From assembly GCA_041740355.1 (NCBI GenBank), contig JBGSMD010000011.1, positions 32,001-96,000 of the forward strand: a stretch of 64,000 nucleotides of DNA. The letters run 5' to 3'. Positions 18,829 through 57,531 of this stretch are shown piece after piece. Numbering within the stretch: the stretch's first letter is position 1; each line of letters begins with the position of its first letter. Position numbers and translations under genes: made by a program. This DNA is from Bdellovibrionota bacterium (GTDB lineage: Bacteria; Bdellovibrionota_C; UBA2361; CALJRW01). The notes under the pieces are model-generated. The model was given only the letters and a program-made list of their open reading frames with translations, did no database searches and was not told the DNA's origin.

Positions 18829-20223
18829 ATGACCATCGAAAATAAAGATTTAATCGTTCTTGGTGCTGGCCCTGGTGGTTACACTGCTGCAATTCGTGCT
18901 TCACAGTTAGGAAGAAAAGTTACCTTAATTGAAAAAGAAGCTCTTGGTGGAGTCTGTCTAAATTGGGGATGTATCCCATCCAAAGCCCTACTTCGCACAG
19001 CACAATTATATACTGATTTTAAACATGCCAAAGATTTTGGAATTAGCGTTGAAAATTTAAAGTTTGATTTCTCAGCAATTATTCAGCGTTCCCGTGAAGT
19101 CGCTGCTAAACTTAACGGTGGTGTTAAGTACTTAATGGGTAAAAATAAAGTTGAAACTATTTTTGGAACTGGAAAAATTTTACCTGGAAAAATTTTAGAA
19201 ATTAAGAATTCCGAAGGAACTAAGCAGTACAGTTTTAAAGATATTATTATTGCAACTGGTGGATCGCCACGAACTATTCCGGGAGTTGAGATCGATGGTG
19301 AAGTTTTTCATACTTCTCGTACAATCTTAGAAAACAAAAGACTCCCACAGAAGATGTTAGTAGTTGGTGCTGGAGCAATTGGAATTGAGTTTGCTTATTT
19401 CTTCAATGCTCTTGGTGTTCAAGTAACTGTTGCGGAAATGCTGGATCAAATTCTTCCTCCAGAGGATACTGAAATTTCTAAAGCCTTAGAAAAAGTTCTT
19501 GTTAAGAACGGGATGATTATTAAGACTGGTGTTAAGATTGAGAATCTAAAGAAAGCTGGGAAAACAGTTACTGCCAGTATTATGAGTAACGGACAGGAAG
19601 AAAAATGGAGTGGAGATTGCTGTTTAATTGCCATCGGTGTTTTAGCTAATACAAATAATATTGGGTTGGAAGAAGTTGGAATTAAAACAGATCGTGGATT
19701 TATTAAAGTCGATGGTTATTTACAAACGAATGTTCCCAATCACTTTGCAATTGGAGATATTATTGGACCTCCACAATTAGCACACAAAGCCAGCCATGAA
19801 GGAATTTTAGCTTCCGAAGTTGCTTGTGGAGTTGCTGAGCATCCGATGGATTATTCAAATATTCCAGGGTGTACTTATTGCCAACCACAGGTTGCTTCTG
19901 TAGGTTTAACTGAACGTGCTGTTAAAGAAAAAGGCATTGAATATAATGTTGGTAAAATGCCATTCTCCGCAGTCGGTAAAGCAATTGCTATTGGTGAAAC
20001 TGATGGGATGGTCAAAGTTATAACTGATAAATCCACTGGTGAAGTTTTAGGAGTTCATATTCTTCATAGCGAAGCAACGGAGATGATTTCAGAAGCAGCC
20101 ATTATTCGTTCGCATGAAGGTATTGCGACCAGTGTTATTGAAACTATCCACCCGCACCCAACATTAGGGGAAGCTTTGATGGAAGCAATGGCAATCGCTG
20201 AGGGAAGACCGATTAATTTCTAG
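18829..20223 (+). CDS. lpdA: Dihydrolipoyl dehydrogenase (E3)
   Basis: GAGPGGY, GGVCLNWGCIPSK, GAGAIGIE, HPHPTLGE. Confidence 0.97.
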   Translation: MTIENKDLIVLGAGPGGYTAAIRASQLGRKVTLIEKEALGGVCLNWGCIPSKALLRTAQLYTDFKHAKDFGISVENLKFDFSAIIQRSREVAAKLNGGVKYLMGKNKVETIFGTGKILPGKILEIKNSEGTKQYSFKDIIIATGGSPRTIPGVEIDGEVFHTSRTILENKRLPQKMLVVGAGAIGIEFAYFFNALGVQVTVAEMLDQILPPEDTEISKALEKVLVKNGMIIKTGVKIENLKKAGKTVTASIMSNGQEEKWSGDCCLIAIGVLANTNNIGLEEVGIKTDRGFIKVDGYLQTNVPNHFAIGDIIGPPQLAHKASHEGILASEVACGVAEHPMDYSNIPGCTYCQPQVASVGLTERAVKEKGIEYNVGKMPFSAVGKAIAIGETDGMVKVITDKSTGEVLGVHILHSEATEMISEAAIIRSHEGIATSVIETIHPHPTLGEALMEAMAIAEGRPINF

Positions 20224-20365
20224 GATTGATTGAAAATCAATCCTAGAAATTATCACGCCAAAGCCATCATCGCTGATAGGAATCCTAAAGGTGATCTGTG
20301 GCGACGGTGGATTGTTGGAAAAAAGAATTTTTTAGTGATTGATTGAAAATCAATCCTAGAAATTA
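20214..20365 (+). repeat. Stop-codon-associated hairpin element at the lpdA 3' end
   Basis: 18-bp perfect IR with GAA loop (20214-20252), TCACGCC...GCGACGGTGGATT core, then an exact 29-bp repeat of the hairpin at 20337-20365. Confidence 0.8.
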
Positions 20366-20468
20366 GCATGTTCCTGCTCTGATAATCATCGTGTTGATAG
20401 TTAACTGTTAAGCAGGGATGGACTGCTTGGAGTCGAACTCTTAAGATTATAATTTAATAGGTAATCCT

Positions 20469-21146
20469 TTGCTTAAAATAATTGACTTAGGCCTCTGCGA
20501 CTACCAAGAAACCCGCGATCTACAAAAAGAGCTCCAACAAAAACTAATCGCTGGTGACCCAGATGACTATCTAATTATCTGTTCCCATACTGCGGTAATA
20601 ACCCGCGGAAAAAGTTCCAAGGAAAATCAAATTCTGGCTAGTGAAGCGGAATTAGAAGCACAAAAAATTTCTGTTATTGAAGTTGAACGTGGAGGTGAAA
20701 CTACCTATCACGATCCGGGACAGCTAATTCTTTATCCAATTATTAATTTAAGTCGCCATAAAAAAGATGTTGCTTGGTATCTAAGACAACTAGAGGAAGT
20801 GATAATTCTTAGCCTTCAAGAATTTGGTGTGCGAGGGCTTAGGATTCAAGGGAAAACAGGTGTTTGGATTGGATCGGGCGGTGGTTTTCCCGATCGCAAG
20901 ATTGCTTCTTTGGGCGTCCGGATTTCTCGTTGGTGTACAATGCATGGTTTAGCCGTAAACATTTATAATTCTGACAAATTCAAGGTTATTGTTCCTTGTG
21001 GGATTGATGGGGTTATGATGACAGATTTAATTACTGAAACGAGAGTGGATTCGCAACTCTCAGTTGATCTTTTTGTAAAGTTTCAAGATAGTATTGTAGC
21101 TAATTTCCAGCGAGTTTTTAAGTCCCCAGAACTTCCTAAGCTATAA
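20469..21146 (+). CDS. lipB: Lipoyl(octanoyl) transferase
   Basis: RGGETTYHDPGQL, RKIASLG, HGLAVN, IVPCG. Confidence 0.95.
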   Translation: MLKIIDLGLCDYQETRDLQKELQQKLIAGDPDDYLIICSHTAVITRGKSSKENQILASEAELEAQKISVIEVERGGETTYHDPGQLILYPIINLSRHKKDVAWYLRQLEEVIILSLQEFGVRGLRIQGKTGVWIGSGGGFPDRKIASLGVRISRWCTMHGLAVNIYNSDKFKVIVPCGIDGVMMTDLITETRVDSQLSVDLFVKFQDSIVANFQRVFKSPELPKL

Positions 21147-21225
21147 ATTCCAGCGCTTGAGGATTATCGCTATAACTGATAATTTACCTATCTAAATAAA
21201 GTCTACTAATAATCAATATAAAAAA

Positions 21226-22548
21226 ATGAAAATCGACATGTTAATGCCCCAGATGGGCGAGTCAATCACCGAAGCTACAATTTCTAAATGGCTTAAGAAA
21301 GCTGGTGATTTTGTTAATAAAGACGAAACAATCTTAGAAATCACGACAGATAAAGTTGATTCTGAAATTCCAGCGCCGGCTTCAGGTATCTTAACTGAAG
21401 TATTGTATGCTGAAGGTGATGTTGTACCAGTCAAAAATAAAATTGCGGTAATCGATTCTGAGGGTAAAGCTTCTGCTGCTCCAGAGAGCCATGTGACTGT
21501 TGAAAAAAATATTGCTGAGCCTAAGAAAATGGAGAGTGCCCCAGTTGCAAGCAAACAAGAGGTGATTGATGTGACTGAAGAATCTGGTGATTCCAAATTT
21601 TACTCGCCATTAGTTAAAAGTTTAGCAAATAAACATAACTTAACTATGGCGGAATTAGATTCCCTTCGAGGATCTGGAACTGCAGGAAGAGTTACCAAAG
21701 AAGATGTTCTTGATTATGTTGAGCAAAAAACCAAACCTCAAGCAGCAGCGCCAGTTGCCACTCAAGTCATAGCTCCTGTTCAGCCAATTGCCTCAAAACC
21801 AGCAGCACCATCTAAAGCAGACTTGCCGACTAACCAATGGTTGCCTGATGGTACTAAGCGAGTTCCGATGGATGGTATGAGACGGGCAATTGCTGATCAC
21901 ATGGTAAGATCAAAACATACTAGTCCTCACGTTTACACTGTGCAGGAAGCTGATGTAAGCAAGGTTTCTAAGTGGAGAGCTATCCATAAAGATGAATTTA
22001 AAAAGCGGGAAGGCTTTGGTTTAAGTTTTACTCCTTTCTTTTTAGAAGCAGCAGTAAAAGCCTTACAGGAATTTCCAATTGTTAATGCCAGTATCGAAGA
22101 AAAAACAATTGTTTATAAGAAAGATGTCAATTTAGGTTGCGCAGTTTCTATTGGTAACACTGGATTAATTGTTCCAGTTATTAAGAAAGCTGATGAGCGT
22201 AATTTAGTTGGACTTGCCCGTAGCTTAAATGAATTAGCACTAAAAGCTCGTGATAAGAAGCTTACTCCTGATGAAGTAACAGGCGGAACTTTCACTATAA
22301 CTAATCCTGGAGTTTTCGGAACAATGATTGGAACACCAATTATTAATCAGCCACAGTCAGCAATCCTGTGCCTTGGTGCAATTGAAAAACGACCAGTTGT
22401 GGTTGATGATATGATTGCTATTCGGGAGCGTTGTTACATAACTCTTTCTTACGATCATCGAATCATTGATGGAGCGATCAGCGCGCAGTATTTAGCATTT
22501 ATTTGTAACTACCTAGCTAACTGGGACATGGAACGCGGATTGTTTTAG
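21226..22548 (+). CDS. 2-oxoacid dehydrogenase E2 (dihydrolipoamide acyltransferase), single lipoyl domain
   Basis: MPQMGESITE...ITTDKVDSE lipoyl domain, E3-binding GTAGRVTKED, DHRIIDG. Confidence 0.95.
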   Translation: MKIDMLMPQMGESITEATISKWLKKAGDFVNKDETILEITTDKVDSEIPAPASGILTEVLYAEGDVVPVKNKIAVIDSEGKASAAPESHVTVEKNIAEPKKMESAPVASKQEVIDVTEESGDSKFYSPLVKSLANKHNLTMAELDSLRGSGTAGRVTKEDVLDYVEQKTKPQAAAPVATQVIAPVQPIASKPAAPSKADLPTNQWLPDGTKRVPMDGMRRAIADHMVRSKHTSPHVYTVQEADVSKVSKWRAIHKDEFKKREGFGLSFTPFFLEAAVKALQEFPIVNASIEEKTIVYKKDVNLGCAVSIGNTGLIVPVIKKADERNLVGLARSLNELALKARDKKLTPDEVTGGTFTITNPGVFGTMIGTPIINQPQSAILCLGAIEKRPVVVDDMIAIRERCYITLSYDHRIIDGAISAQYLAFICNYLANWDMERGLF

Positions 22549-22579
22549 TCCCAAGCCAATTTTATATTAGGTAAATACA

Positions 22580-23131
22580 TTGAGAGTAATCGCAGGAATC
22601 GCCAAAGGTCGTCGCTTAGAATCAGCAGTAGGGGACGAGACTCGTCCAATTACTGATCGAGTTAAAGAGGCATTATTTAATATCTTAATGCCATATTTAG
22701 AGGGTGCCGTTTTTTTAGATTTATTTGCTGGCACAGGCTCTGTTGGTATTGAAGCTTTAAGTCGTGGCGCAGAGAAGTGTTATTTCTTAGAAGTTAATCG
22801 CAAGGCTTACGATGCTTGTCGTAAGAATATTGATCATTGTGGATTCTCCGAACAAGGGGAACTTCGGAACGCCGATGCTTTTGCTTATTTAAAATCCGCC
22901 AAAAAATCTTTTGATATTATTTTTATTGATCCACCACAGTTTAAAAACATGTGGGTGGAAGTTTTAAAAATGATTGCCGAGCGTCCAAATCTTTTAAAGA
23001 ATGAAGCGATGGTGATTGTGAAAATTCATCCAAAAGAATACGAAGAGTTTTCCTCTTCTACCTTAGAAGAATATCGTGTTAGTAAGTATGGCAACAATAG
23101 CTTGGTTTTCTACCGATTGAAATCACATTAA
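22580..23131 (+). CDS. rsmD: 16S rRNA (guanine966-N2)-methyltransferase
   Basis: MRVIAGIAKGRRL, TRPITDRVKEALFN, LDLFAGTGSVGIEALSRGA, DPP. Confidence 0.95.
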   Translation: MRVIAGIAKGRRLESAVGDETRPITDRVKEALFNILMPYLEGAVFLDLFAGTGSVGIEALSRGAEKCYFLEVNRKAYDACRKNIDHCGFSEQGELRNADAFAYLKSAKKSFDIIFIDPPQFKNMWVEVLKMIAERPNLLKNEAMVIVKIHPKEYEEFSSSTLEEYRVSKYGNNSLVFYRLKSH

Positions 23132-23161
23132 CGGAAAACAATAATAGTCGTCATCTTTTGA

Positions 23162-23728
23162 TTAGGCTTGGTTTCTTCTTTCATGATACGCTTTGGCAGC
23201 TTTTAGTATATCAGATGTCATTTTATCATCTTCCCAATAATCAGGCCTATCAATAATAGAATTGATAACTTCAGGGGCTAGTGGTTTACCATCGCCATCT
23301 TGAAACCCAAGCTGAGCAAAGATTTCTCTTAGTCCCGCCTCTAATTTTTCGGGAGTCATGAAAGCAAGAAATACCTTTTGCTTGCGCTCTAGCGCAGCTT
23401 CAGAAAATACTGGTACAGGTGGAAGAACTTCTCTCTCAGGGGCAGATTCAACAGCAGAAGCAATAGGAGCTAATCTTTCATAAGCCGCCCTTAGGTTAGC
23501 TGGGACAATTGGATTCCCGCTGTTTAACATCTTACTTACACCAATCGTCTTGGTATGATCTATGATTCCCAAAGCCAATAGTGCAGTAACAATTTCGCGT
23601 ACTTGATCAGCTTGCGGAGTCGCTCTCAGTTTCGTCGCTAACTCTGTGTCTTTAGAAAGAGCTTCAATCATATTAATAATTTGATTGAAGACCTCTTCTT
23701 TGGGTTGCCGTTCAGATACTAAGTCCAT
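23162..23728 (-). CDS. Hypothetical protein, paralogue of 23874-24446
   Basis: Shared NP..PA.L...Y..L, LPP.PVF and P.YWED motifs. Confidence 0.75.
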   Translation of the reverse strand: MDLVSERQPKEEVFNQIINMIEALSKDTELATKLRATPQADQVREIVTALLALGIIDHTKTIGVSKMLNSGNPIVPANLRAAYERLAPIASAVESAPEREVLPPVPVFSEAALERKQKVFLAFMTPEKLEAGLREIFAQLGFQDGDGKPLAPEVINSIIDRPDYWEDDKMTSDILKAAKAYHERRNQA

Positions 23729-23873
23729 AATTACATCTTTAAATTTTTATAATTGTTGTATGAAATAATAAGAGCATTTTTAAGCTTAAGCAAACTTATT
23801 TTCAGCAATTTTATGAAAAAAACTTAGGTTTTAATAGGCACATGTTCTTACTCTTAAGAGAAGACTAATTATG

Positions 23874-24446
23874 TTATTTTTTGTACTTAGCACGCAGACC
23901 ATCGATTAATGAATCTGCTAGTGTGCTATCTTCCCAATAAGAAGGATCCGTGACTATTCCTGCGATTTCTTCGGAGGTAAGTAATCGGTCTCCAGTTTTT
24001 AATCCAAGTTTACTCATTGCTTTAATTAATTCTTCGGAGATTTGATCAGGTCTAGTAGAAGCGGCCGCAATAACTGCTAACCTACGTAGATCCATATCTG
24101 GGGTAAAGACTGGTGCCGGCGGAAGTGTTTCCACTAATATTTCAGGGACCGGACTTTCTGTTAGTGTCGTCTCGACTACGGGTTTTGGTAAAGCCTGATA
24201 ACGTGTCAGCAATGCTGCTGGGATAGTGGGATTAGCACTTTGTAGGTCTTGAATAACCGGAATAGACTGTTGTCTGACATAAAATCTAGCTTCGACAAGT
24301 TCGTTTGCTAATCTAGTTGCTCGAAGAGAGGCAGATACATTTTCCAGTTCTAAAATACTTGGCTTATTAGTAACTGCAGCCAACATTTTTATGATTTCCA
24401 TTACATTCGGATGGATTGTTGGGGCTTGTGCTGGACCTTGGGACAT
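23874..24446 (-). CDS. Hypothetical protein, paralogue of 23162-23728
   Basis: Same motifs; AGGAG RBS; TTGCTT-N17-TATACT promoter upstream. Confidence 0.75.
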   Translation of the reverse strand: MSQGPAQAPTIHPNVMEIIKMLAAVTNKPSILELENVSASLRATRLANELVEARFYVRQQSIPVIQDLQSANPTIPAALLTRYQALPKPVVETTLTESPVPEILVETLPPAPVFTPDMDLRRLAVIAAASTRPDQISEELIKAMSKLGLKTGDRLLTSEEIAGIVTDPSYWEDSTLADSLIDGLRAKYKK

Positions 24447-24817
24447 CTTTACTCCTTAATTATTTGCAGGCTAGGAGGGAAGTTTGACAGAGCCTGCATT
24501 AACGCAGAAGCGAGTATAAAGAGATCTTATTTGCTAAGCAAACTTTAAATTATTTGTATTATTGTACTAACATATACGAGAAATAACTTTTGATTCGGTA
24601 AGATACCAGTTTGTTTTTAATCATTTCACATACAATTTATTAGCAATTAGTTCCATTGAAAAATTACTGGATCGCTCCTAAGCAGTTTTTTAACATCAAC
24701 TGCTCCAACTATAGCAGGCTAAATAACTGTGTCGTGTTATGTAAACTATAAATACAAATCTAATCGATTATATCTTTTGATTTTTTTTAGTTTCCATTTA
24801 ATACTTAGGAGTATAGC

Positions 24818-27800
24818 CTACTGTTTATATTGCCACATACTATTAGTAAAGCTATCGACACCAGCAAGCGCTTTAAAGCGGTCGTTATATGCAAAAATCG
24901 CAGGATGATTCCAAGCATCTTTTTGTCCCATCAGTTCAGCTGCTAAAACTGTTCCTGCCATTGCTGGCCAGACTACGTGTCTGTAATATACTGCGCCGTC
25001 TTTTAAATGGAAGCGACTATCATCTTTGCTAGGCTCCCAATAATGTCTGATCCCCCAATCAGGTAAGCCAAATTGATCCTGAGTGTATGTTTTATTACCA
25101 AATTCTAAAACTCTTCCAATATCATTACTTTTATCGTGAGTGAAACGATCTCCAACAAAAAAAGTTTCAGTGTCTTCTTGAAAAATAGTTGGATTAGCTG
25201 CAAAAGCTTTTAGTTCAGTGCTATCTGGGTTGTTTCTACTAAGTGCCACAGCGGCAATAAATAGAGGAAATTTACGTCCACACATTTTCCCACCATTATG
25301 ATAAAAAGCTCCCCCATTTTTTAAATAGCCCATAATATCTATTCCAGCTTGGATAGTCTGAATAATTGCTTTCTCTTTTTCCGCATTTGAGTAATTTAAA
25401 TTTAACCACAAACCTACCTTGCCCCATTTCTGAGCGATTTCTCGACCATAAACTGAGGGCACTAATTGACCATTTTCATTAGCTAGTTCTCCAGCAATAT
25501 TTCTCCATGGAATTAGTAGACCTGCAAGTGGATTTGTATGCCATTCCCACCAGGGCAGAGCAGGTAATTTAGCTTCTATCTCAACTTTTGTAGGTGCTCC
25601 ATTTGGAATAGGTAATTTTTTAAATACATCATAATTAATCATGCTTTTGTTCCATCTAACACGACGGTCAGTCCCATATGGAGCGGGTCGAAAACTTCCT
25701 ATTGCTGGTTGGGTTGCTAAGACTGTTAAGACAGCAACGGTTTCATAATAGCGTGGGTATATCTGTGAGTTTGTTATTGAGGATACTAAAGCATCTCCAG
25801 CCTGAAGAACAAATGGAAATGATCTAGCTATGTTCAAGTCCTTATTATAGCTGATCGTATCAAATGTTGATGCAAAATTATCAAAGCCTTGCTTATTATC
25901 CCCAGCAACCGGATTTTTCATCGATCCGCTTGTAACAATTGGCGAGGTGATATTAGTTTTGGGATTAATATCCGTTATAGTCACAGGACCTAAAACCCAC
26001 GGCTCCCCATTTGCAAAAGTTCCCATAGGACGAGGACTAGTAAATGTCCAGGTAATGCCATAATGAGTTACGGTGGACACTGAGTGTCCGTAAACAATAC
26101 AAGAAGTATTGCCAGCGTTTACAAATCCTTCATTGCAGTATTTAACATTACAATCACTCCAACTGCTCCAACTACTGTTACTGCAAGTTCTTACTTGTTC
26201 ACCAGTACCATTAACCATCGGGCAACTTTTTGTATCATCACCAATACAACCTAAAACCGGAGTACTACTCGGTGTTGGAGTTGGGGTTGGGGTAGGAGGT
26301 GGTGGTGTTGGAAGAACAGGCGGAGTTGAAATTGATACAGGGTCAGAGAAATGGGTAATGTTCTGACTTCCAACAGGAGCAAAGTATCCAAAACGGTTTA
26401 ACGCCGAGATTGCACTTTGTGTTTCGCGAAAGGGGTAATTAGTTGCGATCTGAAATGATTGTCCAGTATTATTTTGAATTACTACTGAATAAATTTTATA
26501 AGCCAAATGCACATCCATGGTAACTTGGTATTGTTGACCAGCAACATAATTTACATTTTGAACTGCGGCATAAACATTTCCTTTTCTAGCATCAATAAAA
26601 CCGTTGCTATTAAACCTTAAAGTCGTCGCTAAGGAGTCATAACCAGTAGCATTGTTATTTGATAATCCTGTTAATGAATCAATATTATTGCTTAACGGAA
26701 TTGTCTTATAAGTAATTCTAAAACTACCAGTTTGATTGGTAATATTTTTATTCTTCCATAAATTTGAAGTTACAAGTTCTTCCCCCGGAGGTACTGAAGG
26801 TGCTGGGGTCACTGTCGGAGTTGGAGTAACTGTTGGTGTCGGGTTAACACCAGGCACTGTGAAAACTACTTCACTAAGACTACTAAAGGTGCTTGGATCA
26901 TTTTGATCATAAACATCCTTTCTGGCTCTTATCCAGAACCTATAGGTATTTCCAGCAACAACATTAAGGTTGTAAGAATTCCCTGTGTAGTTAAGTTCAA
27001 ACAATATATCTGTATTAGTGGTAATATTTACTGCTCCAAGTAGAAATTTCGTGTTGGAAGATTGCCAGTTAATAGTTACTAAATTTGTAACATTCTGCAG
27101 ATTAGGCGCAGATAATACTGGGACAGGAAGTTGTCCTGGAGTAGGTACAGGCGTGATGCTTGGAGTTGGTGTTGGTAGAGGTGTGTTAGTAGGATTAGGA
27201 GTTACTGATGGATTTGGAGATGGATTCGTTACAAGAGAATTTGTGGTAACCCTAACCTTTAGTACTGAGGAGTAATCAGATACTAAGTGAACATTTTGCA
27301 AATTCTTAAATGCTACAATCTTAACAAAATAATCAAAGTTAGAACTTAAATCAGATAGGATAACTTTATGATTATTAGTTTTTGCTACTTGTTGATAGCT
27401 TATTCCACCATCTTTGCTTAAATATACAATATAGCCATCAGCATTGCCTCCCCACTTAAGTTCTTTTGTGCTGTTAACAAAGCTAACTCCAGTTGGGGTA
27501 CTAGGACTACTCAAATCTTGTACTTCAGCACAGACTGACTCATAAGCCGTAGCTAAGAGCTGTCCGTAAGTTGTATAAAATAGCGCATATTCTTTAGCTA
27601 GCTGTGCTTTTAAGATCTCTTGATTTACTGTTTTAAGATTAGCCTTATTATCCTTTGCACGTATTTTCTGACGCTTAGCTTCTAACACTCTTAGTTGTTT
27701 CTCTACCTTCTTGGCAATCTTATTATCTGATAAATAAGTAATATAACTATTAATGGAATCGCTAATAGAATATCCCGTAGATTGGTGAGTAGGGTTTACT

Positions 27801-28285: not shown

Positions 28286-28454
28286 CGAACCAACCTTTAA
28301 ACACCTGCGTAGCGAAGATAACCAAAAAACTTAGGGACAAAAATATCCTGATATTTGTGGATGCAAATAATTTAAAAGCGATTCAAATCAAGAGGTTAGG
28401 AAAAGCCAAATTAGCCATTACTCGATATCAGTTTAGTAATAATACAAATATAGT

Positions 28455-28543
28455 AAGTCCAAAAAGTAATTTCCGAAGGATATTGCTTTTTGGGGTTTAC
28501 TATCCGCCGCAAGCGTAATAAAATCATATAGTTATGATAAAAA
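28455..28543 (+). repeat. Dispersed ~90-bp intergenic repeat, copy 2
   Basis: CCAAAAAGTAAT...ATTGCTTTTTGGGG...TATCC...AATAAAATCATATAGTTAT. Confidence 0.75.
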
Positions 28544-28714
28544 TACCGTTTCAATATTCGGAAATTAGTTTTTGTCAGCACTATATAATCTAGGATTTTA
28601 CAATTTTTTACCTAATTTTTGGGATATTAAGTGAGAAACTGAAAGTAGTAGGTATTACTTTCCATAAATCTAACAAAGATTAGTTTTCATTTTTGAGGCT
28701 TTCTTTTCTAATAT

Positions 28715-30235: not shown

Positions 30236-30273
30236 TTTTAATTATGATAATAAATATTAAAAGAAATATCTGA

Positions 30274-34566: not shown

Positions 34567-34567
34567 A

Positions 34568-39100: not shown

Positions 39101-39104
39101 AGCT

Positions 39105-47477: not shown

Positions 47478-49556
47478 CTAACGATTTTCAATGCTATTGA
47501 TCAATGCTACTAAGCCAAAGATACAAGTTAACCAAGAATTGTTACTTAATGCCGTCGGTTGTTTGGCTAACATTTGACCATATTGTAATGGGTCCTGATA
47601 AATTTTTACTGCTTGTTGAATTTTAATACCTAAATCTGTTGTGAGTCCGTTGTAAGTTGGTATTGCCATGCGATCGTAAGGACTAGATGCCGATAGAATT
47701 CCTCTCCAATCTTCAGCATTATTATAACCAGAATCAGAGAATAATAAACCATCAACACTATCTTTAATCTGCTCTCCTAATCCCCCTGTATTATGAGCAA
47801 TAACCGGAGTGCCAATAGAATCTCTTCCCGATCCGCGCCATTCAGGAACCATGCCAAAAGGCTCATAAAGTGATGGCATTATTGCCCAACTCGATCCCGA
47901 GAAGAGTCCTTCGCGAAGATTTCCCTCTAACCAATCTGTTAGGAAAACTAATCGACCAGCTGAGCGCATTGCGACTTCCTCCATTTGGCCAAACATAACA
48001 TCGCCATAAAGTTCGCGAGAAAAGCCCGCAGCTCCAATAACGAAACGTGCATTTAAATCTTTTGGAATATGATCCGCAATTGCTTTTAAAGCCAAGAGGT
48101 GACCTTTTTGATTCCAATCAAAACGACCCATCATGGAAAAAATAGGAATATCATTTGCTAAATTACAAATTCCATCTCTAGTATCTTCTTCCTGCCAATG
48201 ACCGATGACTCTTCGTCCACCATCTTGCAAATCAGATCTTCTTTGTGAATCTAGAAATATTGCTAAGGTTTTTAATAACTCCTGTTGGGAATTGAGTTTT
48301 AGTTTGACTAATTGAGTGACATCACCAGAAAGTGCATTGCGTGTAGCCTCCACAATTTCTGGCTTAGTTCTAACTCTTCCAAAGACACCATTTGGCAAAC
48401 CAGTGACTCCATGAAATTTCATTAAAAAATGTAAATTAGTGTCGATTGGTAATTTATAGGGACGATCTACTATTTCTGCCGCAAACCCTTCGCTCACAGC
48501 CATTAAGGGAGCAGATGTTAGTCCAATCATTCGGGATAAATGAGTATGTCGTTTAGCTGCACCTTGTTCATCAAGCCAATACTCATCTGCAGAACGATCG
48601 GTAATATGTCGTAATTCACCAGGAGTTAAATCGAAGTCAAAAACATTATGTAAGCCAATAGCAGCATGCCCATTTTTAATATAACCACCGGCAATTTGTT
48701 CTGTAAAAGTTAAGACCGAGGCGGCTAAATGAAAGTCTTGAGGAAGTAGAACTATATTTTCAGAAATACCAATTGCTTTTAGTACTTCAGGTATTGCCCT
48801 AGAACCAAATAAAAAATCTTTTTGTGACTTCCAATGAGAATCATGATCGCCATGGTAAGAGTAGGGAGGAGTATTTGCTTCAAAAAAACCTTTCGCTTCA
48901 AATAAATACCAGTCATTAATACTACCATCTTTTTTTATATCTAATAAGCGATAAATATTAGTATCGACTAATGAGCGTTCCCAATTATGGTCTGGCTCAC
49001 CAAAGGGAACTTGACAGGTACCAACATGAAATAAAAATTCATTGGAACGACTAGCGACTTGTGCGCAATCACTTAGTGGAATTTCATTTGCTTCGCATCT
49101 GGCAAAGCGAGTAAATGCTGCACTATCTCTAGATGTGGACATCTCTAGCACTGCCTCGCGAGCCTCGCGATAATGGGAGGCATTTCCACCTTTATGGAAA
49201 GGGCTAACTCGAATCATATGATCGGGTTCGGGAGTTGAGATCGCAGTTTCTCGTAAATCCCTAAAGGCACGAGGTAGATTCTCAGCAACAGGATAAAGTC
49301 CCCCAGCTTTTCCAGTTGGATTTTCGTAGGCCGCGTAGACAAACATTCTACCAAATGGCAAAAGAGCACTTGATTTTAATACTCGTTCTAAACGTTCCAG
49401 GTCACCCTTTTGTCTTTCATTTCCAGCGGAATCTAAGAATAGATTTCTTGTGGTGTGAGGATTCCATTTCCATTCATCTGGTGTGCAGGTCGCATCGTAG
49501 ACTTTGGGGGTAGGAGTAGATCTTCCAGTGGATACAACAAACATCAAATACATCAA
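47478..49556 (-). CDS. Divergent GT5 glycogen/starch synthase-like glycosyltransferase
   Basis: GKAGGL (KxGGL), QDFH, AVSEGFA, GRFDWNQKG, MPSLYEPFG, TGGLGE. Confidence 0.8.
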   Translation of the reverse strand: MMYLMFVVSTGRSTPTPKVYDATCTPDEWKWNPHTTRNLFLDSAGNERQKGDLERLERVLKSSALLPFGRMFVYAAYENPTGKAGGLYPVAENLPRAFRDLRETAISTPEPDHMIRVSPFHKGGNASHYREAREAVLEMSTSRDSAAFTRFARCEANEIPLSDCAQVASRSNEFLFHVGTCQVPFGEPDHNWERSLVDTNIYRLLDIKKDGSINDWYLFEAKGFFEANTPPYSYHGDHDSHWKSQKDFLFGSRAIPEVLKAIGISENIVLLPQDFHLAASVLTFTEQIAGGYIKNGHAAIGLHNVFDFDLTPGELRHITDRSADEYWLDEQGAAKRHTHLSRMIGLTSAPLMAVSEGFAAEIVDRPYKLPIDTNLHFLMKFHGVTGLPNGVFGRVRTKPEIVEATRNALSGDVTQLVKLKLNSQQELLKTLAIFLDSQRRSDLQDGGRRVIGHWQEEDTRDGICNLANDIPIFSMMGRFDWNQKGHLLALKAIADHIPKDLNARFVIGAAGFSRELYGDVMFGQMEEVAMRSAGRLVFLTDWLEGNLREGLFSGSSWAIMPSLYEPFGMVPEWRGSGRDSIGTPVIAHNTGGLGEQIKDSVDGLLFSDSGYNNAEDWRGILSASSPYDRMAIPTYNGLTTDLGIKIQQAVKIYQDPLQYGQMLAKQPTALSNNSWLTCIFGLVALINSIENR

Positions 49557-50394
49557 TAAAACTAAGGGCGCGTATAATATTACTTATTGTATTACTATGC
49601 AAATTAAATAATATTATGAGTAATGCAGTAGTAAATATAATTGAATGACATGGACGGAGGATACTTAATATAGGGGAGTTGACTGTCCAAAAATGCGGGG
49701 AAGGTCAAGGAGTCTATCTGAATCTTGAATTTGATATTAGAGGTGTAGTTTATTTTTCAGTAGCTTTATATTGCAAAGGTTCAAAAGCTGCCAATCAATC
49801 TGCCCCATATTTTTCGAGACCAGCATGGTATTTTCTTGATAGTCAAGGAAAAATAACAAAAGAAATAACAGTAGAAAGTGCAGGAAGTATGTCCTGGAAA
49901 TGTAGGTCATAACGCTCATTTGTTTCACGCTTCATTTCTTTAATTTGTTTTCAGAAACAGTCCATTTTATAATTATAAATTATAAAAACCGACTAGATCA
50001 CAATGTTTTTTTTGCAGTTAGTTTCAATTTGTTAGCTTAAATCGCGAAGACTTTTTTCTGAACAAACTCCTACATGTCCCAAAGACTTTGTAGGGAAGGG
50101 ATATCGTCAACAACCGACCTAGCTTCAAAAGTTTACTTGATTTTAACAATCAACTTGACTTGCTTAAAAAGGGGAATTTCAAGCATAGCCTTGAGTTTTA
50201 CTTTAGACTAAGAACTTAGCCTAGGTAATGGGCCACAAAAAGTAATCCTAGTTTAATTTGATAAGTTTAGTTTCGGTATGATGAATGATTCTATTTTGTT
50301 GAAAGTTAAGTACTTCTTAAAGGTTAAAATCTCGATTATCCTTCGGTTATCATGTGTTCAGATTTAGTCTTAACAAATATTTTTTCAATATAAT

Positions 50395-51684
50395 ATGAAA
50401 AATCATATTTTTAAATATTTAATTTTCTTCTTCTTTTTCTTTATCTTTTATACTCAATTTAAAGTTCCTAGATTAAATTACATCGATAATAATTCGGGAG
50501 TTTATAAAATTCACGGGAAGATTGCCAACTCCCATGAAAGGGGTTTGTTTAGTCATGGCGGGCTTCTTGGGTGGTGCTATGTTCATCCATCAGAATTAAG
50601 TGAAACACTAAAGGATTTTGACTCTGGTCCAAGAAATTGGAACGCTCAATTTCATTTTTATAACAACCAATCTTGCCGATTATTTAATCCTTATTTATCT
50701 CAGTCCGGTGGCCAAGGGATATTATTTAGCATTATTGATATGCTTATCCAGTACGAACAACTTTATCAAATATTTTCAATTTTAATTCTTTCCTTAGTTT
50801 TGACCTTGTGGTCAATTTGGATAAAAGTCACTTTCGGTTCATTAGTAGCATCTATCAATTGTTTAACCTTTTTGCTCCTCGACTGGGTTATTATGTTTAG
50901 CTCAAACATTTCCCTCTTACTTGGTTTGAACTACCTACCTTTTGTCGCAATACTTTGGTGTTTGAATAAAAATTCTGACAAATTAATTTTAATAACGGCA
51001 ACTACAGTCTTAATAAAGTTTTTCTTAACGGGACCTGAATTTTTATTCCCCTTGTTTTTTATGATCTTTCTACCCCTTATTTTTTTCACAATTTTAAGAA
51101 AACAAGACTATCAGTTCTTCTTAAAATCTTCGGCAAAGATTTTTGCCGGATTTGTTATCGCAAGTGTTCTTAGTGTAATGATTCTGACAATCCAGATGTT
51201 GGATTTTATGACATTTGATCAGGTTATTCAAAGATATATTTACACCTTCGAAAAACGTAGCTTCGGAGATCCAAATATTCATATTAAATACTCTAAATCT
51301 TTAAATTACCCAATATTTGAAGCTATAAAATTATACTTTAGTATACCTGCAATAAGTTTTTCAAAGCTCTTTAAGATCAATTTTGCTGAATTAACTTTTT
51401 TCTATTTGATAATTACAGCAATCTTATTGTGGATAGAACAGAAGCTTGCTAGAACATCGCAGGCCTTAATGATCTGCACGTGGATTAGTATTCTTTGCCC
51501 GCTATCTTATATTATCATTACAAAGCCTCATGCTGTTGCCCATCAACGTTTTGGTCCTATAGCTTGGCATTTACCATTTATCTTATTTGGAATGTTGCTA
51601 ACATCCGTAACTATAATTTGCCTATTAAAGAAATTTCAAAAATTTGGAAAGTATTTAGAGAGTCCAAAAACTAATTTCACTTAA
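50395..51684 (+). CDS. Integral membrane protein, GT-C/GtrII-like
   Basis: About 10 TM segments, YLSQSGGQG loop, AT-rich. Confidence 0.6.
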   Translation: MKNHIFKYLIFFFFFFIFYTQFKVPRLNYIDNNSGVYKIHGKIANSHERGLFSHGGLLGWCYVHPSELSETLKDFDSGPRNWNAQFHFYNNQSCRLFNPYLSQSGGQGILFSIIDMLIQYEQLYQIFSILILSLVLTLWSIWIKVTFGSLVASINCLTFLLLDWVIMFSSNISLLLGLNYLPFVAILWCLNKNSDKLILITATTVLIKFFLTGPEFLFPLFFMIFLPLIFFTILRKQDYQFFLKSSAKIFAGFVIASVLSVMILTIQMLDFMTFDQVIQRYIYTFEKRSFGDPNIHIKYSKSLNYPIFEAIKLYFSIPAISFSKLFKINFAELTFFYLIITAILLWIEQKLARTSQALMICTWISILCPLSYIIITKPHAVAHQRFGPIAWHLPFILFGMLLTSVTIICLLKKFQKFGKYLESPKTNFT

Positions 51685-51802
51685 GGAGATTATGTTTGTG
51701 GACTCGGGCTTTTTAAAGCCTGATTTTACTATATTTTCAGAATTGATTAAATTTAATTAATCTTGTTATTCCTTGATTGTCGAAAGGGGCGACTGCGCAG
51801 GC

Positions 51803-52354
51803 AATTATGTTGCAATCAATCCCCCCCCCCCTCACTCTTGCGGAGCTTCGGAGGATAATATTACATTATGCTTTAGGTACCCAACTCGTCGCCTCGCTAG
51901 GTGTCACTCAGCATTCCTCCTTTTTATTGTAGATCCAAAAAAAGGGAGCCATGAAGCTCCCTTTTTATTTTGTATAGGTAATTGTGTTGCGATCCATCCA
52001 CCTTCGCTAAAGCTTCGGCGGATAATCTTATTTCGATTGCTCGAAATAAAATTACATCATGCTTCGAGGACACCCAGCTTACGCTAGGTGTCACTCAGCA
52101 TTCGTAGTCCTTCGGACTACATCATGCCGCTGGGTGTCACCCGATTCTTGCGAATCGAGCTCCACTGGCGTCATGACTAATCATGACTTTCGCAACACCC
52201 AGCTCGTTACCTCGCTAGGTGTCACTTGTCATGATTACATCATGTTTGCTGTGTCACCCAGACACTTCGTGTCTAGGCTCCATGCGCAACATGATTACAT
52301 CATTCCGCTGGGTGTCACCCGATTCTTGCGAATCGAGCTCCACTCACGTCATGA
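51803..52354 (-). repeat. Array of ~60-bp hairpin units downstream of groEL, each ending in a copy of the groEL 3' end
   Basis: (T/C)TA(C)ATCAT copies start at 52295, 52235, 52177, 52117 and 52052, with a degenerate one at 51861; units 52295-52354 and 52117-52176 are 56/60 identical. Confidence 0.9.
51937..51966 (-). terminator. Rho-independent (bidirectional) terminator of groESL
   Basis: A7-GGGAGC-catgaa-GCTCCC-T5. Confidence 0.85.
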
Positions 52355-54034
<1,680 letters not shown>

Positions 54035-54052
54035 TTAATTTTTGATAAATTA

Positions 54053-54355
54053 TTACGCTTCTAAAACGCCATAAACATCATCTTCTTTCATGATCAATAA
54101 TTCTTGACCATCGATTTTGATTTCATTTCCAGAATATTTTCCAAAAATTACTGTATCACCAACTTTAACATCAACTGGACGAACAGAACCGTCTTCTGCA
54201 ATGCGTCCTTTGCCAATTGCAACTACTTCGCCTTTTTGTGGTTTTTCCTGAGCAGAATCAGGGATGTATAAACCAGATTCAGTTTGTGCACTGCTATCAA
54301 GTCGTTTAACTAGGATACGTTCGCCTAATGGACGAATCTTTCCGTTTTTGCTCAT
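54053..54355 (-). CDS. groS: Co-chaperonin GroES
   Basis: IRPLGERILV, SGLYIPDSAQEKPQ, VKVGD. Confidence 0.99.
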   Translation of the reverse strand: MSKNGKIRPLGERILVKRLDSSAQTESGLYIPDSAQEKPQKGEVVAIGKGRIAEDGSVRPVDVKVGDTVIFGKYSGNEIKIDGQELLIMKEDDVYGVLEA

Positions 54356-54483
54356 TTTTATCTCCTAATAAATGTTTTAACAAAAAAATGAATTCCAAAA
54401 GTTCTATGATATAGAACAATTCACTCAATTAAATTTGAGTCTTTCAGTCGATGATGGATATCATCTAAATATCGACCCCCGTA

Positions 54484-54513
54484 TTAATGGACATGATTAA
54501 AGCAAAATTCAAG
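54484..54513 (-). promoter_or_regulatory. Possible sigma32-like heat-shock promoter of groESL
   Basis: Minus strand CTTGAA-N15-GTCCATTA, against the consensus CTTGAA-N13-17-CCCCATNT. Confidence 0.4.
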
Positions 54514-54984
54514 GTTTTAAGATAATTTTTTTCCTGATTGTTGTCATAAAAGTTCAGATAATGATTATAATTCGTTTAAAATCAGCCTAAGTACTATAAT
54601 TTCTTGTAACTTTTTGAATAGCCAGAGGTATGTAATTGAAAAATTAAAATTTTCAGGTTTTTCCAAACTCTTTATTCCAATTTATAAATGACAAAATTTA
54701 AAGTCAGTTTTTTGCTAAATTTAGCAAGATTGTTTAATATATTTCTTCTGTAGTGGTTTGGCAGTTAATAAGTTAAAAGTTAATACTATTTGTGTTGTCT
54801 TTGCCGTGCGAAATTGGTGCCCCAATATTCACACTCTCTGTAAAGTGTTATTAATCCTGCAATTCTTGATGAACTTTACTCTAGAACTGCTTCAGCAATT
54901 TCTAAGTTCTTAAGTCAGTAGAGGATTAAACAAGCAATCTCTATTAATAAACCAGCATAAGATTTAATATATTTAACAAGCTCT

Positions 54985-56148
54985 GTGGCAAATAAAAGTC
55001 CAAATAATTTCAATTATTCATTACGTAACGATCTGATTCAACAAATAATCGCTGAAGGTTTGGGGCAGGGTGTCTTTCCAGGTTGCTGCTTGTCGGTCGG
55101 TTCTCGTGGTCAAACACTTTTTCATAATGCTTACGGTAACTTTTTCCCAGAATCTGAAACTGAGAAAAATCCCACTGTTACAACTGATACAGTTTATGAT
55201 TTGGGAACATTAAGTTCTGTAATTGGAACTGTAACTACGATTTGGTCTTTAATTAATCAAAATTTTCTAAGCTTTGAAGATCAGGTTATTCGATTCCAAC
55301 AAAGTTTTTCTGTACATGGCAAAGCCTCGATCACCGTGGGAGATCTTTTATACCATCTTTCTGGTCTTGCCTCCGAGCAAAATTATCATGAGGAAATTAG
55401 TAAGGATAGTCTTAATAAGTCTCTCGGACTAATGACAAGTCCTGGTGCCAAGGAATATGTTTACAATCGTATTAATCGGGCTCGCCTTAGATCAAAGCCA
55501 CATGAGGTGCAAAGATTTAGTTCTGTTGGTTTTATTCTTCTTGGGAGGATTATTGAGAATCTTACCGGTAAAAGTTTAGATGATTCCGTAACTGAGCATG
55601 TATTCAAACCGCTTAAGTTAAATTCTACCGGCTATATTAACTTAAATCGTTTAAAAACTGGGATTCGAACTGATTTGGATATGGTTGCTCCAACAGAGGA
55701 TTGCACTTGGAGAAAGAAACAGCTTTGGGGGGAAGTACAAGATGATGTTGCTTGGACTATGGGTGGTGTAGCAGGGCATGCAGGTATTTTTTCGACACTT
55801 GAGGATTTAAGTTTGTTTTGTGAAGCAATTCTTTCTGCTTATCGGGGAAATTCGGAAGTAATTAAACCTGAAATATTAAGACAAGCTTGGAACTTAGATG
55901 CTTCTAACCAAGGATTAAGGTACGTTGGTGGCTGGGAAAAGGCACATAAGGAAAACCAATTATTAAATTGTGGTTTTAGCGAACAAGCATTTGGGTTTTG
56001 TTCTAATAGTGGTTGTTTGATTTGGATTGATCCAGAAGTTGATTTGCACATCGTTTTCCTTTCTAATGCTCTATGTCCAAGTCGTAACAATAAACGAATC
56101 ATGAATTTTATGCCGCAATTGCTTAAAGCCATTCGTGAGAGTTTTTAA
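54985..56148 (+). CDS. Beta-lactamase/serine hydrolase family protein lacking the SxxK motif
   Basis: TVYDLGTLSS (normally D(L)ASxTK), LLYHLSGL, GFILLGRIIE, GEVQD, GGVAGHAGIFS. Confidence 0.85.
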   Translation: MANKSPNNFNYSLRNDLIQQIIAEGLGQGVFPGCCLSVGSRGQTLFHNAYGNFFPESETEKNPTVTTDTVYDLGTLSSVIGTVTTIWSLINQNFLSFEDQVIRFQQSFSVHGKASITVGDLLYHLSGLASEQNYHEEISKDSLNKSLGLMTSPGAKEYVYNRINRARLRSKPHEVQRFSSVGFILLGRIIENLTGKSLDDSVTEHVFKPLKLNSTGYINLNRLKTGIRTDLDMVAPTEDCTWRKKQLWGEVQDDVAWTMGGVAGHAGIFSTLEDLSLFCEAILSAYRGNSEVIKPEILRQAWNLDASNQGLRYVGGWEKAHKENQLLNCGFSEQAFGFCSNSGCLIWIDPEVDLHIVFLSNALCPSRNNKRIMNFMPQLLKAIRESF

Positions 56149-56316
56149 AGACTAAGCCGGTAAACCCTCTGCTCGTTATTTTTGAAAATATCAAAGATAA
56201 CCAAGGAGGGTTTTATGTTGTTTTCTACGGCAAAAATGGCATAGCCATTATTTTGCTCGCCCAACGTCATTTATTTTTTATTAAAAAATGACGTTGGGTT
56301 TATTTGAGTTATACAG

Positions 56317-57387
56317 ATGTTAGATAAATTAGCAGAACTAGAAAGAAAATTTGAAAGTATCACCGAGAAACTTTATTCTCCAGAAGTTGGATCACAACCA
56401 GACTTACTTAGAAAATATTCCAAAGAACAAAAAGATCTTAAGCCCCTGATTGAAACTTTTCGTACTTATAAAGCTGCTGTAAGTGAATTAAAAGACATCA
56501 AAGAATTATTAAATACTAGCAAGGATGCTGATATTATTGAAATGGCTAAGGAGGAATTAAATCCTCTGGAAAGTACAGTGGCGGACTTGGCGGAGCAACT
56601 AAGGGTTTTATTGATTCCTAAAGATCCCAATGATGATAAAAACATTATTTTAGAAATTCGCGCTGGTGCAGGTGGAGATGAGTCGGGGATTTTTAGTGGG
56701 GATCTTTTTAAAATGTATACCCGCTACGCAGAAGCTCGTGGTTGGAAAGTGGAACCATTATCTCTTAGTCAAGCTTCGGCGGGGGGATTCAAAGAAGTTA
56801 TAGCCATGATTAGTGGAGAAGGGGCTTATAGCCGTTTTAAATTTGAACGTGGTGTACACCGTGTTCAACGTGTTCCAGAAACAGAAACTCAAGGCCGAAT
56901 TCATACTTCCACTGTAACTGTTGCAATTCTTCCCGAAGCCGAGGACGTAGAAATTGAAATTAATCAAAATGATTTAAGAATTGATGTTTATCGTGCTGGT
57001 GGCCACGGTGGTCAGAGCGTTAATACAACTGACTCAGCTGTTAGGATTACACACTTACCAACAAATACAGTTGTTTGTATGCAGGATGAAAAATCTCAGT
57101 TGAAAAATAAAGAGAAGGGGATGAAAATTCTTAAATCCCGACTACTCGAAGCTAAAGAAGCTGCAGCTCATGCCGAGCGTACTGCGGATCGTCGTTCACA
57201 AGTTGGAACGGGAGATCGTTCCGAGAAGATTCGAACTTACAATTATCCCCAATCAAGAATTACCGATCACCGAATTGGACTTTCTATCCACAGTATCGAT
57301 CAAGTAATGAATGGTGACTTAGATCAGCTTGTCGATCCACTTAACTCGCATTTCCAAGCAGAAGCACTAAAGAATAATGAGAATTAA
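56317..57387 (+). CDS. prfA: Peptide chain release factor 1
   Basis: GVHRVQRVPETE (PxT), GGQ motif; prmC downstream. Confidence 0.98.
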   Translation: MLDKLAELERKFESITEKLYSPEVGSQPDLLRKYSKEQKDLKPLIETFRTYKAAVSELKDIKELLNTSKDADIIEMAKEELNPLESTVADLAEQLRVLLIPKDPNDDKNIILEIRAGAGGDESGIFSGDLFKMYTRYAEARGWKVEPLSLSQASAGGFKEVIAMISGEGAYSRFKFERGVHRVQRVPETETQGRIHTSTVTVAILPEAEDVEIEINQNDLRIDVYRAGGHGGQSVNTTDSAVRITHLPTNTVVCMQDEKSQLKNKEKGMKILKSRLLEAKEAAAHAERTADRRSQVGTGDRSEKIRTYNYPQSRITDHRIGLSIHSIDQVMNGDLDQLVDPLNSHFQAEALKNNEN

Positions 57388-57531
57388 TTATTAACTTATG
57401 ACCGAAGGTCATAAGTTAATAATTATCACGCCGTAGCTTTCTTGTCCGTTGTAGCTTTAGCGAAGGTGGAAGCGAAGGCGGATTACTTGGGAGAAGAAAG
57501 TCAAAGACCGAAGGTCATAAGATAATAATTA
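57385..57531 (+). repeat. Stop-codon-associated hairpin element at the prfA 3' end, with a nested 30-bp insert
   Basis: 19-bp perfect IR with GAA loop (57385-57425), TCACGCCGTAGCTTT[57441-57470]AGCGAAGGCGGATT, partial hairpin repeat at 57506-57531. Confidence 0.85.

Follow-up and report, generated by a model that had tools for sequence, protein, structure and literature searches.

Repetitive extragenic palindromic (REP) sequences and the REPINs composed of them rank among the described systems closest to the element reported here. In the available passages of PMC3733652, REPs often lie near stop codons or overlap them, some are embedded in larger palindromes whose empty targets have not been found, and their distribution across species is patchy. 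A second body of work concerns replication template switching, which yields reverse-complement copies, can produce a perfect stem in a single event, and restores pairing in existing stems (PMC8794818); by the same kind of correction, perfect inverted repeats in Proteobacteria appear to be maintained (PMC5941160). Features of both meet in a 64,000-nucleotide stretch of DNA, here called the window, from a Bdellovibrionota bacterium (assembly GCA_041740355.1, contig JBGSMD010000011.1, positions 32,001 to 96,000). Behind lpdA, prfA, and groEL, the window carries a unit that, read in gene-sense orientation, consists of a locus-specific hairpin, directly followed by a constant GC-rich stem-loop (the core) and a short tail. 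On balance, this unit is probably a composite of a REP-like core and a hairpin that was created, and is being repaired, by replication template switching (snap-back copying).

The genome holding the window (G000) is a draft of 3.27 Mb in 74 contigs with 36% G+C. It was compared with a sister species of the same genus (G001), about 80 to 85% identical in the compared regions, and with a member of another genus of the same family (G002, also g2). The first unit lies at the end of lpdA (18829 to 20223, plus strand), which encodes dihydrolipoyl dehydrogenase (NCBIfam profile TIGR01350, 562 bits). Its mirror hairpin (20214 to 20252, plus strand) is a perfect 18-bp stem with the left arm at 20214 to 20231, the loop GAA at 20232 to 20234, and the right arm at 20235 to 20252. 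The stop codon TAG (20221 to 20223) lies within the left arm, the 5' part of which is therefore formed by the last 7 coding nucleotides plus the stop codon and not by the last 10 coding nucleotides, as the preliminary description of this DNA had it. The core follows at 20253 to 20313 (plus strand; C11:52256-52313 in genome coordinates) with the layout TCA plus CGCC-AAAGCC ... GGCGAC-GGTGGATT, an outer stem-loop with a 34-nt insert in its loop, and has an orthologue in G001. The tail, GTTGGAAAAAAGAATTTTTTAGT (20314 to 20336, plus strand), can be aligned in part with G001 and leads to a direct duplicate (20337 to 20365, plus strand) of 20225 to 20253; its 29 identical nucleotides comprise part of the left arm, the loop, the right arm, and ATTA, and no recognizable counterpart of it was found in G001. 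The contigs of three DNA runs of one study (X1 to X3) are identical to the window over 19600 to 21000, with zero joints and zero element-less forms.

The second unit begins on the stop codon of prfA (release factor 1; 56317 to 57387, plus strand; identity upheld at 520 bits), the TAA at 57385 to 57387 being the first triplet of a perfect 19-bp hairpin with a GAA loop (57385 to 57425, plus strand). Its core (57426 to 57484, plus strand) reads TCA plus CGCC-GTAGC ... GCGAAGGCGGATT and holds a nested copy of the canonical 32-nt core unit in its loop at about 57441 to 57472. In G001, the outer core is retained with different loop content, and the hairpin has one pair altered on both arms and the loop GTA. 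Downstream lies a direct duplicate (57506 to 57531, plus strand) of the loop, the right arm, and ATTA, 26 nt with one mismatch, at which the duplicate keeps the base found in G001. The duplicate is an old, decaying copy, while the hairpin, changed on both arms, is being maintained.

The two arms of a hairpin differ in origin. In seven relatives from other families of the order, the LpdA end (GRPINF and the stop codon) is kept and is followed by unrelated DNA, with neither hairpin nor core at lpdA; G002 also keeps the LpdA end and lacks both, and its prfA runs straight into prmC. Because the LpdA end is kept in relatives that have no hairpin, the left arm is native host sequence and the right arm a secondary reverse-complement copy. 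On our reading, left arms in general are the host's own DNA, from the stop codon or from a tRNA 3' end, and right arms their reverse-complement copies, an exact complement to the adjacent, preexisting sequence such as a template-switch hairpin would have. The idea that the element carries the reverse complement of its own target thus stood, on the native LpdA end in the seven relatives and g2 and on a tRNA-Ser 3' end contained in one arm. Elsewhere in G000 the arm sequences do not occur, save for local duplicates at three loci; the arms therefore copy their targets and do not guide to them, which rules out a library of guide arms as well as arms acquired as spacer-like copies from elsewhere in the genome.

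Comparison of G000 with G001 covered nine gene-end loci and the groEL-distal site, and what is said below on changes in the arms refers to these two species. At seven of the nine gene-end loci the unit is present in both; at the other two, C67:33728 and C30:120775, hairpin and core are both absent from G001, which is empty after the same stop codon. Together with the lack of the unit at lpdA and prfA in G002, this amounts to gain or loss between close species and agrees with the insertion behind genes that had been proposed. Five loci have stems that can be aligned column by column, giving 95 pairs. Fifteen of these differ: 14 have changed on both arms (13 from Watson-Crick to Watson-Crick and 1 to T.G), and 1 is a two-sided indel. 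One-sided changes were not found among the 95 pairs. Four pairs differ in the orthologous lpdA stem, all on both arms, and four adjacent pairs plus an indel differ at C10:5334. The mirrored changes include synonymous ones in the last codons as well as a stop codon switch from TAG to TAA, which the right arm reproduces at lpdA, one of the counted changes, and at C19:8044, which is not counted. At C39:10520, the right arm in G000 differs from the arm in G001 and from an older downstream copy and pairs perfectly with its own left arm; one arm has evidently been rewritten from the other. Clustered multibase and indel changes on both arms are thus present, as expected of template-switch hairpins, with single events not separable between two species. 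If one arm serves as template for the other, a two-sided indel, adjacent two-sided clusters, and the overwriting of a whole arm are to be expected; single mutations sifted by selection would produce them only with difficulty.

These comparisons also bear on the guide arm envisaged in the preliminary description, a variable arm of a mobile element that base-pairs with its target to direct insertion. The complementarity of the right arm to the gene end is as this explanation requires. The complementary partner, however, is in cis, on the same strand, and native; the arms are unique to their loci; and orthologous units match again after the gene end has mutated, which a guide used once would not do. 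Nor was any linkage to a nuclease, reverse transcriptase, or recombinase found in G000, where three RVT_1 genes in frames of 439 to 472 amino acids (C11:29354-30016, 2 kb left of the window; C16:131684-132340; and C63:95505-96176) have no Rfam intron or retron RNA match at their loci, so that a group II intron or retron link was dropped as well. Guide-directed mobile elements such as those of the IS200/IS605 and IS110 insertion sequence (IS) families encode an enzyme and carry a guide that matches the target in trans; here, no gene is linked, the partner is host sequence in cis, and arms rematch after divergence. A guide arm is therefore extremely improbable. The other half of the same proposal, fold-back copying of the target, is favored.

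We infer the following course of events. During replication, the nascent strand would snap back, often at a GAA-type triloop, and copy the gene end into a right arm. GAA triloops form very stable DNA mini-hairpins and would nucleate such snap-back. Later template switches would recopy one arm from the other, so that the stem stays perfect as the gene end drifts. The core would be joined beside the hairpin by the same error-prone copying with another copy as template: possibly, in an ectopic switch, the 3' end released from the new stem would anneal to another unit at the (T)TA|TC junction, copy core and tail, and return upstream, sometimes repeating part of the hairpin or gene end and leaving long direct duplicates of 17 to 29 nt. 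Such ectopic switching would explain the constant abutment of hairpin and core, the variable length of the direct duplicates (17 to 29 nt), and the tandem second units seen at C10:5334 and C39:10520. A bolder version, which we think rather unlikely, would make the 32-nt hairpin itself a transposase-free mobile DNA spreading by copy choice: GAA-type mini-hairpins would release the replisome, the element would be copied from another locus and, in this lineage, the gene end inversely copied as well, and the result would be a self-recopying, stop-anchored palindrome. If so, the element would spread and make new RNA structures at 3' ends by means of the host replication machinery alone.

Selection could account for the matched arms in a different way. 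The units might be functional modules of the 3' untranslated region, RNA structures serving termination, mRNA 3' stability, or gene and tRNA processing, with the covariation reflecting compensatory evolution. We see in this a real but minor possibility, which concerns maintenance and can be combined with an origin by template switching. It is consistent with the strict sense orientation, the start at a stop codon or tRNA end, the retention of structure while sequence changes, and the covariation of the core's own stems between orthologues; the case for it is made from sequence and from predicted single-strand folds, which are strong (-62.9 kcal/mol, z -7.4; -50.4 kcal/mol, z -5.7). In the predicted lpdA fold, the left arm can pair instead with the distal duplicate, and the core then tips a long stem. 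In Escherichia coli, according to the available portion of PMC12306157 and its reference 17, REPs reduce the translation of an upstream gene when fewer than 16 nt separate them from the stop codon, and the present units resemble that case in having a stable stem-loop within 15 nt of the upstream stop codon in sense orientation; there, the repeat is itself the structure, whereas here a locus-specific stem with the stop codon stands between gene and repeat. Several units lie inside operons (prfA-prmC, after ftsA, and after mraZ), a setting that suits a stability element better than a terminator. The two-sided indel and the whole-arm overwrite are difficult for point mutation and selection, on the other hand, and the few imperfections are A.C, A.A, and T.G, one each, without preference for G.U. 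Units are also missing at the same housekeeping genes in close relatives and are thus dispensable. Should the transcribed two-hairpin structure be active at all, it would act on the upstream mRNA or tRNA precursor and not as a terminator.

Beyond the window, the pattern holds across the genome. The core motif given in the preliminary description has 3 matches in the window and none in 100 shuffles; a loose core motif matches 60 times in G000, and a structure-based definition of the core finds 98 copies, versus 10 in a shuffled genome. The canonical unit CTTGTCCGCCGWAGCTTTAGCGAAGGTGGAAG accounts for most core copies; it often sits within another copy's loop or at the tip of larger palindromic repeats. 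Perfect hairpin and core occur together as about 18 to 20 units with AT-rich stems of 15 to 23 bp. An unbiased listing of the perfect hairpins in G000 (stem of at least 12, loop of 3 to 8) yielded 178 hairpins, or 356 orientations, and many of the longest AT-rich, unique ones are adjoined by a subtype of core, TC(N)CGCC-RWAGC-loop-GCGAMGGYGGATTG; we call this core subfamily and its units, about 18 in number, class B. A hairpin beginning between positions -3 and +14 of the stop codon of an open reading frame (ORF) of at least 100 codons was found for 14 of the 356 orientations, compared with 207 of 20,000 random positions, and 11 of these 14 ORF-end hairpins have a core-type hairpin directly 3' (8 flagged by script; C10:5334, C30:120775, and C61:18750 added by eye). 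Position at gene ends in sense orientation, noticed at three genes in the window, was thereby borne out genome-wide.

The survey also bears on whether hairpin and core are chance neighbors, native terminator hairpins beside which an unrelated repeat has landed. This explanation fits three perfect hairpins at ORF ends that lack a core; one of these has the GC-rich stem and T run of a classic terminator. Against it stand the core at 11 of 14 gene-end hairpins, the AT-rich stems of 15 to 23 bp that lack a T run, and the joint absence of hairpins and cores in relatives, and we hold it to be very unlikely. A terminator scan of the lpdA and prfA sites gave no terminator-like T run on the sense strand; the GC-rich stem and sense T run of an intrinsic (Rho-independent) terminator are lacking, and units lie inside operons.

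In six units, stem and stop codon begin at the same base (about 0.01 expected among 20 units by our arithmetic). In five units, of which four are class B, the left arm contains the stop codon 3 to 12 nt in; none of the gene-end units starts a few bases past the stop codon. Three of 18 units adjoin or overlap the 3' end of a tRNA, and the tRNA-Ser arm mentioned above contains the last 5 nt of that gene. Among the class-B units of G001, three of six start on a stop codon and one follows a tRNA. A stop triplet (TAA, TAG, or TGA) opens 11 of about 21 stems and is out of frame in some (lpdA and C30:19899); two simple rules, a start at the first TAAT or at the first stop triplet, are each contradicted by at least one locus (lpdA, C30:19899, and C67:33728). 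Selection on termination or tRNA maturation may set the limit to which stems extend; or there may be an advantage in having the stop codon within the stem, by analogy with the REPs up to 15 nt from a stop codon that affect translation in E. coli. The junction between hairpin and core is nearly always A|TC, about 7 of 18 units have GAA loops, and the core contains two CGAAG motifs. Upstream of the units are the genes for CorA, GyrB, a KefC-like transporter, FumC/AspA, MraZ, a Rieske ferredoxin, FtsA, DnaE, one protein without a family, LpdA, and PrfA, as well as tRNAs. Housekeeping genes of every expression level are thus represented, several of them within operons, and the earlier idea of insertion behind highly expressed genes is not supported. 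Behind dnaE (C61:18750-18788, minus strand), the stop codon lies 3 nt inside the left arm of an 18-bp perfect hairpin, and the second hairpin that follows, CCCTGAGCTTGTCGAAGGG, differs from the class-B core; this widespread hairpin also occurs in genome G037 (L179 and L183), nested in class-B core loops.

The core is built of an outer stem of 4 to 6 bp, a symmetric GWA/GAA internal loop, and a short inner stem, and its loop can take up further inserts. CTTGT-CCGCCGWAGCTTTAGCGAAGGYGGA-AG is the canonical 32-nt form, and TCNCGCC...GGCGGATTG is the subfamily, class B, that lies at gene 3' ends in this genus. The core is a GC-rich stem-loop of the REP or small-dispersed-repeat kind and is not confined to this lineage. 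An exact match to the 25-mer CCGCCGWAGCTTWAGCGAAGGYGGA was found in at least 119 stretches of species genomes from many phyla, where by our arithmetic about 0.01 chance matches are expected in 596 billion bases. Its hosts include Alphaproteobacteria (several Bradyrhizobium and Maricaulis), Verrucomicrobiota, Planctomycetota, Bacteroidota, Patescibacteria, Bdellovibrio, Nitrospira, Acidobacteriota, Omnitrophota, and others, complete isolate genomes among them. The flank CTTGT before the core is conserved (C in 74, T in 65, T in 69, G in 87, and T in 111 of 120), as is A/T-G after it, and in other phyla the core is again nested in similar hairpins or placed at the tips of local palindromes. Of 122 canonical copies, 14 have a tRNA gene within 60 nt, compared with 1.4% of positions in the same loci (about 8-fold enrichment). 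In a Sphingorhabdus metagenome-assembled genome (L014:7911-7935), a core immediately precedes the conserved GGAAAGTCCGGGCTCCA in the gene for RNase P RNA, where, by eye, it would tip helix P3. Canonical cores of other phyla lie within 30 nt of a gene end in 10 of 97 cases, compared with 3 of 97 controls, a weak test in GC-rich DNA, which gives long frames by chance. Within the order of the window, the canonical unit is present in 24 of 91 genomes, mostly in 1 to 4 copies, with 31 in G000 (counted at up to one mismatch) and 8 in G001, and the class-B core is present in 6 of 91. Phages as vectors of the core were considered and set aside, the viral collection having the core in only six stretches. 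Rfam families at gathering score gave only one tRNA in the window, and only noise on the units at E values up to 10.

In its short, imperfect GC-rich palindrome and its many dispersed, mostly intergenic copies, the core resembles REPs and REPINs. It lacks the unpaired GTAG/CGTC head of REPs; GTAG or GAAG instead lies inside the stem-loop, there is the conserved flank CTTGT, and in some class-B variants CGTC forms the stem itself and not a head. Instead of pairing up as inverted doublets, core units are nested one within the loop of another, and the same 32-nt unit recurs in many phyla. Nor, unlike in the systems of REPs and their associated tyrosine transposases (RAYTs), is any RAYT gene flanked by the core.

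The absence of flanking cores touches on the possibility that an enzyme, a RAYT-like tyrosine transposase of the HUH type, recognizes the folded core on single-stranded DNA and inserts it at the 3' foot of DNA hairpins, with the foot TTA/CTA/TCA plus TC as its target and the duplicates arising from repair. G000 has five full-length RAYT-like HUH genes of 325 to 341 amino acids with HIH and YxxNPV motifs and IS-like conserved flanks (C16:249390-250412, C51:14138-15160, C51:22114-23136, C26:27175-28122, and C63:205639-206586). Their proteins have REP_Tyr_transpos as best NCBIfam match, and the nearly invariable A|TC junction, together with the REPs inside palindromes without empty targets in the available passages of PMC3733652, would suit an enzyme of this kind. 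That best match reaches 59 bits, however, below the cutoff of 80, and no core was found within 400 nt of any of the five genes. Across the order, 83 of 91 genomes have the RAYT-like family, at up to 20 matches each, versus 6 of 91 for class-B and 24 of 91 for canonical cores, so the family does not track the cores. IS200/IS605-type insertion, moreover, is not known to make a target duplication, and insertion of a core leaves the mirror arm unexplained. We consider this explanation unlikely and have rejected the RAYT-like protein as mobilizer for want of flanking cores and codistribution. The co-occurrence of an HUH gene with the cores, raised in the preliminary description, was accordingly not seen, and no dedicated or linked nuclease, reverse transcriptase, or recombinase for the units was found in G000. 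With a REP-like core that occurs across phyla and the one HUH family examined not tracking it, the view of a private, undescribed system with a nuclease of its own is not supported.

Several observations weigh against an origin and upkeep of the units by template switching. The evidence for co-change comes from only two species, and selection on RNA structure could also give compensated substitutions. Two loci, C19:8044 and C39:10520, were excluded from the pair count: the first has indels and, with all left-arm changes mirrored, one A.A mismatch in G001, and the second has an 8-nt unpaired block in G001. No intermediates with only a hairpin or only a core occur among the nine gene-end loci (seven have both and two neither), so that hairpin creation and core arrival as separate steps are assumed and not observed; at the groEL-distal site, the core is present in both species and unrelated sequence takes the place of the hairpin in G001. 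The exact coincidence of six stem starts with the stop codon, and the stop triplet (TAA, TAG, or TGA) at the start of 11 of about 21 stems, do not follow from template switching. The 29-nt duplicate at lpdA, being identical in G000 and unrecognizable in G001, may be a later event and not the scar of the original insertion. Finally, in other phyla, canonical cores adjoin a perfect hairpin with a stem of at least 9 in 4 of 115 cases, versus 1 of 115 controls (stem 8); an abutting hairpin being rare there, the link between hairpin and core is so far a feature of this family.

Other systems share single traits with the units. Class C group II introns insert after terminator hairpins; with these introns and with integron attC sites the units have in common a place behind a variable gene-end hairpin, sense orientation, and recognition by structure instead of sequence. 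In contrast to both, the units are 60 to 100 nt long and have no ribozyme or integrase partner, Rfam finds no intron, and the stems are perfect, without the extrahelical bases and GTTRRRY ends of attC. Unlike miniature inverted-repeat transposable elements (MITEs), which have a short target-site duplication of constant length, they lack IS-like terminal repeats, and duplicates, of 17, 26, and 29 nt, occur at only 3 of 18 units. Small dispersed repeats (SDRs) of Nostocaceae, reportedly described by Elhai et al. in Genome Res in 2008, are said to comprise eight families of noncoding, apparently mobile repeats of 21 to 27 nt that insert into repeats or palindromic sites. The core is similarly very small; SDRs, compared here by description only, are found only in Nostocaceae in the part of PMC5861425 at hand, and the core is pan-bacterial. 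The template-switch studies, in the portions available (PMC8794818; PMC5941160), share with our loci the perfect stem from a reverse-complement copy, the multibase compensatory changes, and the correction of repeats to perfection; they concern RNA genes and generic inverted repeats, whereas the events here are at gene 3' ends, on stop codons, and tied to a specific repeat.

REPs within palindromes without empty target and REP ends overlapping stop codons (PMC3733652), as well as the birth and repair of hairpins by template switching, are thus already in print, to the extent of the source passages at hand. A stop-codon-anchored mirror hairpin was not found in the REP literature as represented by the available passages of PMC3733652. 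In a literature search covering main texts and not figures or supplements, we found neither the combination of gene-end mirror copy, anchoring to stop codon or tRNA, REP-like core, and co-change of both arms nor any mention of the 32-nt unit as pan-bacterial; a string search for the unit sequence returned nothing relevant, only unrelated primers. The interest of the loci lies in the record of template switching, in the unexplained anchoring to stop codons, and in the constancy of the core across phyla. If template switching is responsible, they would be an unusually clean natural record of it, in which stems of about 20 bp, written from the end of the gene itself, have remained perfect despite substitutions and an indel, and would bear on how long RNA or DNA stems arise and how compensatory change happens. 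The process would be tied to a tiny repeat found with exactly the same sequence in Proteobacteria, Bacteroidota, the Planctomycetes-Verrucomicrobia-Chlamydiae group, Patescibacteria, and others, which raises the question of which universal host function propagates a 32-nt sequence or keeps it constant. In annotation, the units should not be called terminators or guide-bearing elements, and covariation of a stem should not by itself be taken as proof of a selected RNA structure.

The third locus of the window is groEL (52355 to 54007, minus strand; identity upheld at 871 bits). The sequences quoted for all three loci in the preliminary description are present in the window where it had placed them, and its statement that the lpdA and prfA stems are perfect and the groEL stem has one G-T pair was confirmed. 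The groEL-distal hairpin (52023 to 52054, minus strand), 14 bp with that G-T pair, lies between TAAT and ATTA, and G001 has 13 unrelated nucleotides at its site. It is followed by a canonical core, TCCGCCGAAGCTTTAGCGAAGGTGGAT (51996 to 52022, minus strand). The 17-nt groEL end, CATGATGTAATCATGAC, has two more copies downstream, giving three copies (family D3) over 52228 to 52364 on the minus strand (52348 to 52364, 52288 to 52304, and 52228 to 52244) at a spacing of 60 nt, each bordering a further small hairpin repeat. This triple gene end and the downstream duplicates at lpdA and prfA had been missed before. In a second copy of the larger groEL-distal repeat (51818 to 51864, minus strand; families D4 and D6), TAAT adjoins ATTATCC... 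with no hairpin between, and the core is a variant; a run of 11 G occurs inside this variant core at 51820 to 51840 (minus strand). A further canonical core of the window, with three mismatches to the previously reported motif, is at 16751 to 16774 (minus strand).

Around prfA, the distance to prmC, about 10 nt in the sister genus G002 (L135), exceeds 200 nt in the window through the unit and the duplicate, and a 140-amino-acid ORF (57601 to 58023) precedes prmC in G000. Two other repeats of the genome were noted. A MITE-like family on many contigs (C39:3187-3226, C2:23151-23193, and C36:6678-6718) has a first hairpin, CTCACC..TTTTCATTTTT / AAAAATGAAAAG..GGTGAG, that varies yet is perfectly paired; the hairpin is followed by a constant CGAGCAAAATCCTGTC..GACAGGTTTTGCCGTAGAAAA, the loop of which often contains the canonical core, and the same perfect-stem behavior is thus seen with another repeat. 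An abundant palindromic repeat, CCAAAAAGTAATTT-loop-AAATTACTTTTTGG with flanks of the GGGGGATAGAAAG type, likewise occurs on many contigs (e.g., C16:73561-73596 and C2:21942-21977).

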